NCBI RefSeq assembly: GCF_050920415.1
Contig: NZ_CP169309.1
From: Escherichia coli
Lineage (GTDB): Bacteria > Pseudomonadota > Gammaproteobacteria > Enterobacterales > Enterobacteriaceae
Strand: one strand, 5' to 3'
DNA length: 64,000 nucleotides
Each line of letters begins with the position of its first letter. Within the stretch, counting starts at the first letter, position 1. Both the position numbers and the translations under genes were made by a program. Of this stretch, positions 32,858-35,947 are shown one piece after another. Under the pieces are notes generated by a model, which saw only the letters and a program-made list of their open reading frames with translations, was not told where the DNA came from and searched no databases.

Positions 32858-34231
32858 TTATTTTAATAACCGCACCCGGCACGTTTTTCCTTTAATCTTC
32901 CCGCCCTGTAACTGTTTCCATGCTTTATGAGCAACAGCCTGACGCACCGCGACATAGACATGCGCCGGATGCACGGCGATTTTGCCAATATCTGCGCCAT
33001 CAAGCCCGATATCTCCTGTCAGCGCACCTAATACATCACCCGGGCGCATTTTGGCTTTTTTCCCGCCATCGATACACAACGTTGCCATTTCTGCTTCCAG
33101 CGGCACAATGGAACTATTAACTGGCGGCGTTTGCCAGTTAAGTTTTATCTGCAACATGTCAGAAATGATATTGGCCCGCTGTGCTTCTTCCGGGGCACAG
33201 AAACTGATCGCCAGACCGCTATTTCCTGCACGCGCTGTACGACCAATGCGATGTACATGAACTTCAGGGTCCCACGCCAGTTCAAAGTTCACTACCAGCT
33301 CAAGCGATTTAATATCAAGACCACGCGCAGCAACATCCGTCGCGACCAGCACACGAGCGCTACCGTTAGCAAAACGTACCAGGGTCTGATCGCGGTCACG
33401 TTGCTCCAGATCGCCATGTAACGACAATGCACTTTGCCCTATGTCATTCAGCGCGTCGCAGACAGCCTGACAATCTTTTTTGGTATTGCAAAACACCACG
33501 CAAGAGGATGGCTGATGCAAACTTAATAACCGTTGCAACAGCGGAATTTTGCCTTTGCTGGATGTCTCATAAAATTGTTGTTCAATGGGAGGCAGAGCAT
33601 CTGTTGAGTCAATTTCAATCGCCAATGGATCGCGTTGAACTCGTCCGCTGATTGCGGTGATGGCTTCCGGCCAGGTTGCCGAAAACAGAAGCGTCTGTCG
33701 AGATGCTGGCGCAAAACGGATAACATCATCAATGGCATCGCTAAATCCCATATCCAGCATGCGATCGGCTTCATCCATCACCAGCATATTCAACGCATCC
33801 AGTGATACCGTGCCTTTTTGCAGATGGTCCAGCAAACGCCCCGGGGTTGCCACGATAATATGCGGCGCATGTTGCAACGAATCACGCTGCATACCGAACG
33901 GTTGACCACCGCACAAAGTCAAAATTTTGGTATTTGGCAGAAAACGCGCCAGCCGACGCAATTCACCTGCCACCTGATCCGCCAGTTCACGCGTAGGGCA
34001 CAGCACTAAAGCCTGGGTCTGAAATAGCGACGCATCAATTTTCTGTAGCAGCCCGAGGCCAAAAGCCGCCGTTTTGCCGCTGCCGGTTTTCGCCTGCACG
34101 CGAACATCTTTTCCGGCAAGGATCGCCGGAAGCGCGGCGGCCTGCACCGGCGTCATAGTTAAATAACCCAACTCATTAAGGTTCGTGAGTTGGGCGGGAG
34201 GCAAAACATTCAGGGTAGAAAAAGCGGTCAC
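32858..34231 (-). CDS. dbpA: ATP-dependent RNA helicase DbpA (DEAD-box)
   Basis: 457 aa ORF; Walker A AKTGSGKT, DEAD motif (VMDEADRM), SAT, HRIGRTAR. Confidence 0.95.
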   Translation of the reverse strand: MTAFSTLNVLPPAQLTNLNELGYLTMTPVQAAALPAILAGKDVRVQAKTGSGKTAAFGLGLLQKIDASLFQTQALVLCPTRELADQVAGELRRLARFLPNTKILTLCGGQPFGMQRDSLQHAPHIIVATPGRLLDHLQKGTVSLDALNMLVMDEADRMLDMGFSDAIDDVIRFAPASRQTLLFSATWPEAITAISGRVQRDPLAIEIDSTDALPPIEQQFYETSSKGKIPLLQRLLSLHQPSSCVVFCNTKKDCQAVCDALNDIGQSALSLHGDLEQRDRDQTLVRFANGSARVLVATDVAARGLDIKSLELVVNFELAWDPEVHVHRIGRTARAGNSGLAISFCAPEEAQRANIISDMLQIKLNWQTPPVNSSIVPLEAEMATLCIDGGKKAKMRPGDVLGALTGDIGLDGADIGKIAVHPAHVYVAVRQAVAHKAWKQLQGGKIKGKTCRVRLLK

Positions 34232-34261
34232 AATCTGTTCTCGTGGTCATCGACGCAAAAA

Positions 34262-34435
34262 TTAGCAAGCGCGTATCCTCGCAGATCTACGCTCACGATG
34301 CGACAATTTAATCGGTTCTTCATCGGGTGGTGGGTCAGGCATGGGTTGCGGGCGAGGGATTGGATCGGGCACTGGAACAGGATCGCCAGGAATCGGTTCA
34401 GGGACAGGAATTTGCAAATAAATGAGTGTCGTCAT
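34262..34435 (-). CDS. putative small proline-rich protein (57 aa), unvalidated
   Basis: ORF MTTLIYLQIPVPEPIPGDPVPVPDPIPRPQPMPDPPPDEEP... with strong SD (GGAGGG, 5 nt spacer) immediately upstream of dbpA; below the ORF-track size cutoff. Confidence 0.3.
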   Translation of the reverse strand: MTTLIYLQIPVPEPIPGDPVPVPDPIPRPQPMPDPPPDEEPIKLSHRERRSARIRAC

Positions 34436-34492
34436 ATTTCCCTCCGGTCATTGGGTGGACTCTTAAAGGGTAGACGCTGATATATAACAGGC

Positions 34493-34614
34493 AAAAAAAA
34501 GCCGACTCATCAAAGTCGGCGTCGTACGAATCAATTGTGCTATGCAGTAATTCAAAAAAGGAAGTAAGACAATATGGAGCGCAACGCCCATCGCTTGACG
34601 TTGCATTCACCTGC
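34493..34614 (-). ncRNA. fnrS: FnrS sRNA (FNR-activated)
   Basis: Reverse complement reads GCAGGTGAATGCAACGTCAAGCGATGGGCGTTGCGCTCCATATTGTCTTACTTCC... ending in GCCGACT/AGTCGGC hairpin plus U8; matches recalled FnrS and its dbpA-zntB location. Confidence 0.85.
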
Positions 34615-34649
34615 AAGAGAGATATTGCCCTGAATGGGTAGAGAGTTTA

Positions 34650-34663
34650 TTGACTTCGCTCAA
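34650..34663 (-). promoter_or_regulatory. FNR-box-like site at about -41.5 of fnrS
   Basis: TTGAC-ttcg-CTCAA, 8/10 match to TTGAT-N4-ATCAA, centred about 42 bp upstream of the inferred FnrS 5' end. Confidence 0.6.
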
Positions 34664-34709
34664 ACTTTGCGGCGTTTTTGTATACAGATAGTAGGGAAAA
34701 TTGCTGTTG

Positions 34710-35714
<1,005 letters not shown>

Positions 35715-35947
35715 TTATTTTGTAGTCTAGCCTTCTGGCCCTGTTACGCAACATCTCATCACCCCATTACCCTGAAATGATTAATAAAATTCTGTCTAAA
35801 TTGAATACAAAAAGCAAAATGCTTTTCCATATACAAACCGTGTGAAGTGTTAAATAGCGTCTATCATTATCAGAATTATCTGATCATATGACGTGGCTTT
35901 TTTGCGATCGGATAGCAACAAAAATTGATAAAAATAACGGGATCTCA

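Follow-up and report, generated by a model that had tools for sequence, protein, structure and literature searches.

An acidic X-Pro core under peptide-level selection, and a tail that seems to be read into an element upstream of dbpA, in the small protein YnaL of Escherichia coli

Several described systems invite comparison with the small proline-rich protein encoded between fnrS and dbpA in Escherichia coli. Consecutive proline codons, as in the Salmonella ORF mgtP (in the mgtCBR leader) and in E. coli CadC, make the rate of translation dependent on EF-P. The arrest peptides SecM and TnaC combine a variable N-terminus with about 30 conserved residues after it, which adjoin a motif that is slow to translate. 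The proline-rich antimicrobial peptides apidaecin, oncocin, and Bac7 are rich in PRP and PxP, extended, and strongly cationic, and the proline-rich spacer of TonB (PF16031 TonB_N; NF008084) alternates X-Pro with acidic residues and is expected to form a rigid polyproline-II structure. The closest counterpart of all is YnaL of E. coli K-12, of the Pfam family PF23677, which has the same 57-aa sequence and the same fnrS-ynaL-dbpA locus as the ORF studied here, with no difference at the protein level.

The ORF lies in a 64,000-nt stretch of an E. coli genome (contig NZ_CP169309.1), hereafter called the window, and its features are listed in Table 1. It had been put forward from the letters alone as a 57-codon ORF, and the ORF list confirmed both the frame, which runs on the minus strand from an ATG, and its translation. 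The product is identical to K-12 YnaL (b4743), whose gene occupies 1409308..1409481 of MG1655 with fnrS on one side and dbpA on the other. Between the two strains, the CDS differs at three nucleotides, all of them synonymous, and there is one indel in the ynaL-dbpA spacer. RefSeq annotates the ORF as 'proline-rich small protein YnaL', and does so at the match in all of the sampled E. coli genomes. The Pfam profile PF23677 ('Protein YnaL-like') matched over the whole protein with 136.9 bits (cut-off 27), residues 1-57 aligning with profile positions 1-57. A 551-bp query around the ORF was found as a single copy in 5392 of 5426 complete E. coli genomes. Over positions 34150..34700, the window was 100% identical only to strain 2013C-4282, and the identity reached at least 99% in 18 of the 5392 genomes, the remainder falling at 95-99%, which places the window in one of the rarer lineages of E. 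coli.

Expression of YnaL has been documented twice. VanOrsdel et al. (2018; PMC6001520) described the same 57-aa protein between fnrS and dbpA at 1409308-1409481, tagged it chromosomally with SPA, and saw it by immunoblot, so that it stands among their 36 sORFs with detected SPA-tagged products; they also noted that it had been positive in a ribosome-profiling screen, and that ynaL might form an operon with dbpA. That screen, done by Nakahigashi et al. (2016; PMC4909307, Table S5) by tetracycline ribosome profiling (TetRP), reported a 57-aa sORF, 'IVP7', with a TetRP start-site signal of 22.5 (rank 92 of 360 intergenic starts), and the ORF was among those picked for a genomic Venus fusion. 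This signal supplies the ribosome occupancy that the original prediction had named as a check. No function of YnaL was reported in the literature searched, and the accessible papers give its detection only. The ORF is thus ynaL, a gene already annotated, named, and experimentally detected twice, and not a new one.

Table 1. Position and basis of the features at the fnrS-ynaL-dbpA locus, in window coordinates
Feature	Coordinates	Strand	Basis and remarks
FnrS sRNA, upstream neighbour	34497..34614	minus	Rfam RF01796, 134.8 bits (gathering score 60)
Candidate ynaL promoter, TTGCCT-N16-TACCCT	34467..34494	minus	Conservation; -35 at 34494..34489, -10 at 34472..34467
ynaL Shine-Dalgarno (SD), GGAGGG	34440..34445	minus	Sequence; 4 nt before ATG
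ynaL CDS, 57 codons and TAA	34262..34435	minus	ORF list, ATG start
Acidic X-Pro repeat core, D18..E40, DPVPVPDPIPRPQPMPDPPPDEE	34316..34384	minus	Protein-level selection
PPP motif P35-P37, Asp on both sides	34325..34333	minus	Predicted EF-P-dependent stall site
Bipartite block CCGATTAAATTGTCGCATC-N8-AGATCTGCGAGGATACGCGC(C), encoding the YnaL tail PIKLSH...RSARIRA	34269..34315	minus	Invariant nucleotides
Candidate dbpA extended -10, TGcGAGGAT	34275..34283	minus	Inferred; 43 nt upstream of the dbpA GTG
dbpA, downstream neighbour, 457 aa	32858..34231	minus	ORF list and RefSeq annotation; GTG start

The start codon of ynaL is preceded by ccGGAGGGaaatATG. The near-ideal SD claimed for it is present, and the claimed 5-nt spacer holds when counted from the GGAGG core, while it is 4 nt from the full GGAGGG. 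dbpA itself has a weak SD and a GTG start, as opposed to the strong SD of ynaL. The placement of the ORF between the FnrS terminator and dbpA, on the dbpA strand, was likewise correct: the RF01796 match places the 3' end of FnrS, whose terminator hairpin spans 34520..34501, 61 nt before the ATG, a gap of 30 nt separates the TAA from the dbpA GTG, and all three genes lie on one strand. At the extreme 3' end of ynaL, this E. coli has a weak terminator-like hairpin with a T-run (34265..34282, minus strand; GCGAGGATACGCGCTTGC TAATTTTTGC), and the T-run is not conserved in other genera. Proline accounts for 16 of the 57 residues of YnaL, and the net charge is -6 over residues 9-41 and +5 over residues 42-57; neither a hydrophobic segment of transmembrane length nor a signal peptide-like N-terminus was found in the 57 aa. 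The window holds another upstream micro-ORF, a 15-codon ORF at 35707..35754 (minus strand), 13 nt upstream of zntB, which corresponds to the RefSeq small protein YnaN.

The length of the ORF is by itself no proof of a gene, since the surrounding 3.5 kb is full of unannotated ORFs of 56-96 aa, among them a 96-aa ORF antisense over the bases of ynaL. We examined 80 dbpA loci (L002-L081) from other genomes, sampled as one-genome-per-species contigs, and found the ynaL ORF directly upstream of dbpA in 65 of them. A protein search returned 162 homologues, every one of them with PF23677, from Escherichia, Citrobacter, Salmonella, Enterobacter, Klebsiella, Raoultella, Leclercia, Lelliottia, Kosakonia, and other genera. 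All 62 distinct homologous ORFs, which are 46-84 aa long (median 60), have an ATG with an SD-like GGAG, GAGG, or AAGG before it. The aligned sequences vary over their first ~15 residues, and the stretch DPxPxPDPIPRPQPMPDPPPDEEPIK(L/M)S is near-invariant, as is RSARIRA where it is present. Within the core, mean identity at the first, second, and third codon positions was 0.94, 0.96, and 0.62, and the Nei-Gojobori dN/dS was 0.064 across at least 14 genera, at a dS of 1.32 that is saturated; the first 198 codons of dbpA gave 0.041 for comparison. All four synonymous proline codons are in use at the invariant proline columns, and the cores of E. coli and Kosakonia pseudosacchari have different codons at 13 of 19 sites, every change being synonymous. 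The codon pattern shows that the X-Pro core is under purifying selection on the peptide, over about 23-29 residues and at a strength near that acting on DbpA. ynaL thus stands above chance, because the frame, start, and SD are kept in 65 of the 80 loci, because of this pattern of substitution over the codon positions, and because its expression has been published. That the ORF might be a genuine small protein, as first suggested, is borne out by the identity with K-12 YnaL, the membership in PF23677, the low dN/dS of the core, and the published detection by TetRP and the SPA tag.

A profile search over 1.84 billion representatives gave only 37 matches, which included divergent members from Phytobacter, Scandinavium, Erwinia, and Mixta. 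In these, the core is present and the C-terminus reads ...DPPPH(R/M)* rather than EEPIKLS... The reading frame is thus conserved in related species, both in the 65 dbpA loci and in these further genera, and ynaL is a real small-protein gene confined to Enterobacteriaceae and Erwiniaceae. Four large proteins among the matches (P0123, P0138, P0140, and P0149) aligned mostly over many short repeated stretches and carry no YnaL-related Pfam domain, and we read them as driven by composition. A profile search of the PDB gave a chance match only, and no plasmid copy of ynaL was found in a search run with the low-complexity filter on. The X-Pro repeat also varies in length, in frame, within species: E. 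coli sequences show an 11-aa duplication and deletions of 11 and 15 aa (P0001, P0112, and L004), Salmonella sequences show a 10-aa duplication (P0053, P0103, and P0105), and all of these variants retain RPQPMPDPPPDEEPIK. They look like the products of slippage between short direct repeats in the proline-rich coding sequence.

The basic tail behaves differently from the core. At third codon positions, identity is 0.92-1.00 in PIKLS, 0.95 in the codon for His, and 0.97-1.00 in RSARIRA, whereas the core has 0.62. The bipartite block is invariant in its nucleotides across more than 14 genera, with an 8-nt middle that is fixed in length and variable in sequence. The block is kept in Kluyvera although the ynaL ORF is gone there, and it is kept 3' of a premature stop in 12 of the 65 ORF-bearing loci, which belong to the E. 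cloacae/hormaechei group, some Lelliottia, and some Kosakonia, and in which YnaL ends as ...PIKLSHR*, ...PIKMSLR*, or ...PIK(L/M)SR*. In K. oxytoca and K. michiganensis, the ynaL ORF extends into dbpA. Genomes without dbpA directly downstream of ynaL lack the block. Because the presence of the tail flips within genera, RSARIRAC is dispensable for the protein. Judged from these codon patterns, selection on the tail codons acts on the nucleotides and not on the peptide, and the basic tail appears to be an upstream element of dbpA into which the ynaL ORF reads, not a conserved protein module. The original description of the product as a proline-rich repeat with a basic tail stands for the repeat; the tail charge of +5 is present but is not a conserved protein feature.

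The invariant block is probably the promoter region of dbpA, with TGcGAGGAT as a candidate extended -10 that falls within ynaL codons 51-54 (Ser51-Ile54). Positional equivalents lie 34-43 nt upstream of the dbpA GTG, namely TGcTAGCAT in Siccibacter, TGgTATTAT in Mangrovibacter, TAgTATCAT in Providencia and Morganella, and TGcTACACT in an Erwinia-like contig. Beside the candidate -10, CCGATTAAATTGTCG may be a promoter or activator-site sequence of the same block. In the region of the E. coli ynaL 3' end and the dbpA 5' region, a single-sequence RNA fold was no better than those of shuffled sequences (z -0.37), and a consensus fold of 23 sequences reached -3.8 kcal/mol with 8 invariant and 0 covarying pairs. 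The promoter reading is favoured because no conserved RNA structure offers itself as an alternative explanation. By eye, we considered a 7-bp hairpin TCGCATC...GATcTGCGA, a GNRA-loop mini-hairpin AUCU-GCGA-GGAU, and a CsrA-like GGA hairpin, which in a block too invariant to show covariation are candidates only. Motifs for sigma-E, sigma-32, sigma-54, and sigma-28, ArcA and DnaA boxes, and base pairing between FnrS and ynaL were also sought by eye, and their spacing or sequence did not fit. The conservation of the block goes far beyond the need of a weak promoter, which may mean that a regulator binds there. Within the block are an inverted repeat, TCGCA...TGCGA, and what may be a GNRA mini-hairpin, the sole natural variant of which (GCGA to GAGA) keeps the GNRA.

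Upstream of ynaL, the -35 of the candidate promoter overlaps or abuts the end of the U-tract of the FnrS terminator. The pattern TTGnnn-N15-18-TA[CT]nnT occurs there in 64 of 65 loci, with a spacer that is nearly always 16 nt long and variable in sequence, and the Erwinia-like contig has a similar TTGCCA-N16-TATGCT. A generic sigma-70 scan gave no match in the region, and it was silent on this candidate because too few consensus positions match. The literature search yielded nothing useful on the transcription starts of dbpA and fnrS. From the conserved spacing, we infer that ynaL is transcribed from a promoter of its own, with TTGCCT-N16-TACCCT as the candidate.

The gene is also found apart from its usual neighbours. 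In a Phytobacter locus (L082) and in locus L086, zntB-FnrS-ynaL is followed by a convergent ttcA with no adjacent dbpA, and in L082, where the sequence was inspected, a terminator hairpin follows the ynaL stop. The Erwinia-like contig (L083) has the order zntB-FnrS-ynaL-terminator-ttcA-dbpA. In Intestinirhabdus and Shimwellia, genes are inserted between FnrS and ynaL, and ynaL remains beside dbpA; the inserts are a 260-aa ORF (L066, 1796..2578) and two divergently oriented ORFs, 283 and 310 aa long (L070, 917..2712), respectively. Because of these contexts, ynaL requires neither read-through from FnrS nor dbpA downstream, and gene order thus argues that it is autonomous and unlikely to be a leader of dbpA. 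Conversely, Kluyvera, Siccibacter, Providencia, and Morganella have dbpA but no ynaL. The Kluyvera loci that have lost the ORF (L039, L045, L046, L047, and L052) retain a TACCCT remnant after the FnrS terminator, which lies 9 nt rather than 16 nt past TTGTCT and runs on into the dbpA-proximal block. Most Enterobacteriaceae lack a terminator between ynaL and dbpA, which makes co-transcription and some local influence on dbpA possible. In L082 (2660..2700) and L083 (2690..2730), DPPPH(R/M) stands two codons before the stop, and the terminator hairpin begins within ~10 nt past it, so that part of the terminator stem would be masked by a ribosome pausing at this PPP. Such an arrangement could serve as a read-through switch in L083, where ttcA and dbpA follow on the strand of ynaL; with the convergent ttcA of L082 and L086, it could not.

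These observations lead us to the reading that we consider the most probable, with a reasonable though far from complete measure of confidence: ynaL, a real gene, would encode a trans-acting X-Pro peptide, expressed from its own promoter and dependent on EF-P, with a tail that arises by reading into the dbpA promoter. Transcription would start at the promoter abutting the FnrS terminator, and the strong SD would ensure efficient translation. The peptide would then take the form of a short, extended polyproline-II rod and serve some partner in trans, either binding it or acting as a spacer, and its variable, mildly hydrophobic N-terminus and its C-terminus would be accessory. In E. coli, the basic tail would result from the ORF running through the invariant element upstream of dbpA to the next stop codon. 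An AlphaFold2 model gave pLDDT above 90 at residues 21-40, with no helix or strand and a pTM of 0.22, which suggests that the core may form an extended polyproline-II rod; high pLDDT on a proline-rich stretch reflects local geometry and not a binding function.

Synthesis of YnaL should depend on EF-P. This is predicted from the D-PPP-D motif, since PPP ranks first among EF-P-dependent stalling motifs and an Asp on either side of a diprolyl motif promotes stalling as well (PMC4176338). In the middle column of PPP, 60 of 65 distinct sequences have P, four have S, and one has L, and the divergent clade often has a second DPPP. In the examined part of the EF-P/EfpL ribosome-profiling tables, dbpA is listed and ynaL is not. 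The ~30 conserved residues N-terminal to and around PPP would also suit a nascent-chain function of the arrest-peptide kind. A bolder variant, which we regard as quite improbable, makes YnaL a translation-linked device, in which an abundant, EF-P-gated acidic polyproline peptide reports, through its level or its nascent chain, the capacity for forming Pro-Pro bonds and acts on the translation or ribosome-biogenesis machinery; the gene shares a conserved neighbourhood with those of DbpA, a 23S-rRNA helicase, and TtcA, a tRNA-modifying enzyme. As for its origin, ynaL may have been born de novo between FnrS and dbpA in an ancestor of the Enterobacteriaceae and Erwiniaceae, the tail being gained and lost repeatedly by way of the dbpA promoter.

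The described systems with which we began resemble YnaL in part. The TonB spacer shares with it the alternation of X-Pro with acidic residues and the expected rigid polyproline-II form, but YnaL has neither a transmembrane anchor nor a C-terminal TonB domain. Homology with TonB was rejected: the two TonB profiles gave YnaL E-values of 2.9e-4 and 0.68, with 20.8 bits against a curated cut-off of 315 and 11 against 33, and the resemblance is compositional only. The proline-rich antimicrobial peptides are similar in length and in their extended PRP- and PxP-rich sequence; this identity was also set aside as resemblance only, as the YnaL core has a net charge of -6 and there is no secretion signal. 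With polyproline leader ORFs and EF-P-tuned proteins, YnaL shares the short ORF, the consecutive proline codons, and the strong-staller context of Asp around PPP. It differs from such leaders in having no conserved cis target downstream and no alternative RNA structure, and the selection on it spans ~23 or more residues, beyond the proline run. The arrest peptides SecM and TnaC match it in the variable N-terminus and the ~30-residue conserved segment near a slow motif, whereas ynaL has no conserved regulated gene downstream and full-length tagged YnaL accumulates (PMC6001520).

A role in cis deserves closer weighing, as the original prediction had offered a leader function in dbpA regulation as one of two readings. 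As a leader (uORF), ynaL would tune dbpA through a pause at D-PPP-D, set by the supply of EF-P or Pro-tRNA, which alters transcription-translation coupling or translational coupling. The position, 30 nt upstream of dbpA on the same strand and with no conserved terminator between, is what a leader would have, as is the strong SD ahead of a gene with a weak SD and a GTG start; the conserved segment is about as long as the ribosomal exit tunnel, and loss of EF-P at polyproline stretches leads to Rho-dependent and intrinsic termination downstream (PMC5021804). PPP itself points both ways, being kept in 60 of the 65 sequences and missing in five. When held against the defining features of a leader, ynaL has the slowing motif, with its predicted stalling, but lacks the linkage, the RNA structure, and the stop-to-start geometry. 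Where dbpA does not directly follow (L082 and L083), it is kept with a promoter-like element and a terminator of its own, and it is also kept without an adjacent dbpA in L086, while dbpA persists without it in the four genera named above; a conserved leader role is unlikely because of this retention of ynaL with its own terminator. In addition, ynaL ends at varying distances from the dbpA start, as the stop lies ~60 nt upstream in the 12 early-stop loci and the two genes overlap in K. oxytoca and K. michiganensis, neither fold revealed a conserved or covarying structure, and the candidate promoter of dbpA apparently lies inside the 3' end of ynaL. We thus regard the leader as unlikely, and as a conserved role it was not upheld, though for the gene order of E. 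coli it retains some plausibility.

Slightly less unlikely, but still doubtful in our view, is a dual role, in which YnaL acts in trans and transcripts begun at the ynaL promoter also pass the dbpA promoter, adding to dbpA expression or interfering with it, in the arrangement of Escherichia, Citrobacter, Salmonella, and Klebsiella. The lack of a terminator between the two genes in most genera, the location of the candidate dbpA -10 in ynaL codons 51-54, and the possible ynaL-dbpA operon listed by VanOrsdel et al. (PMC6001520) all agree with it; however, E. coli has the weak terminator-like hairpin and T-run at 34282..34265, and the arrangement is not universal in the family. At the other extreme, the ORF might be a chance product of pervasive translation, translated neutrally and without a selected function. 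Selection on the peptide is not evident at the majority of intergenic start sites (PMC4909307), and the N-terminus and tail of YnaL are weakly constrained at the protein level. Against this stand the dN/dS of the core at saturated dS over at least 14 genera, the SD and ATG conserved in all homologues, the single copy in nearly all complete E. coli genomes (5392 of 5426), and the conservation of the core out to Erwinia and Mixta. By the codon-level analysis, this reading appears effectively refuted, and we give it almost no weight. The trans-acting X-Pro peptide with its own promoter therefore remains our preferred reading.

As a discovery, the finding carries limited weight, given that ynaL is named, annotated, provided with a Pfam family, and detected twice experimentally. 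What the analysis adds to the known gene is that the acidic X-Pro core is the selected unit, that the tail seems to be a by-product of the dbpA element, and that ynaL is probably autonomous. Because the tail overlaps the deeply conserved element upstream of dbpA, mutating or tagging the ynaL 3' end will probably perturb dbpA expression, and both the published SPA and the Venus fusions were placed at that end. Few small proteins of E. coli show selection this strong, across genera, on a low-complexity X-Pro sequence, and YnaL is one of them.
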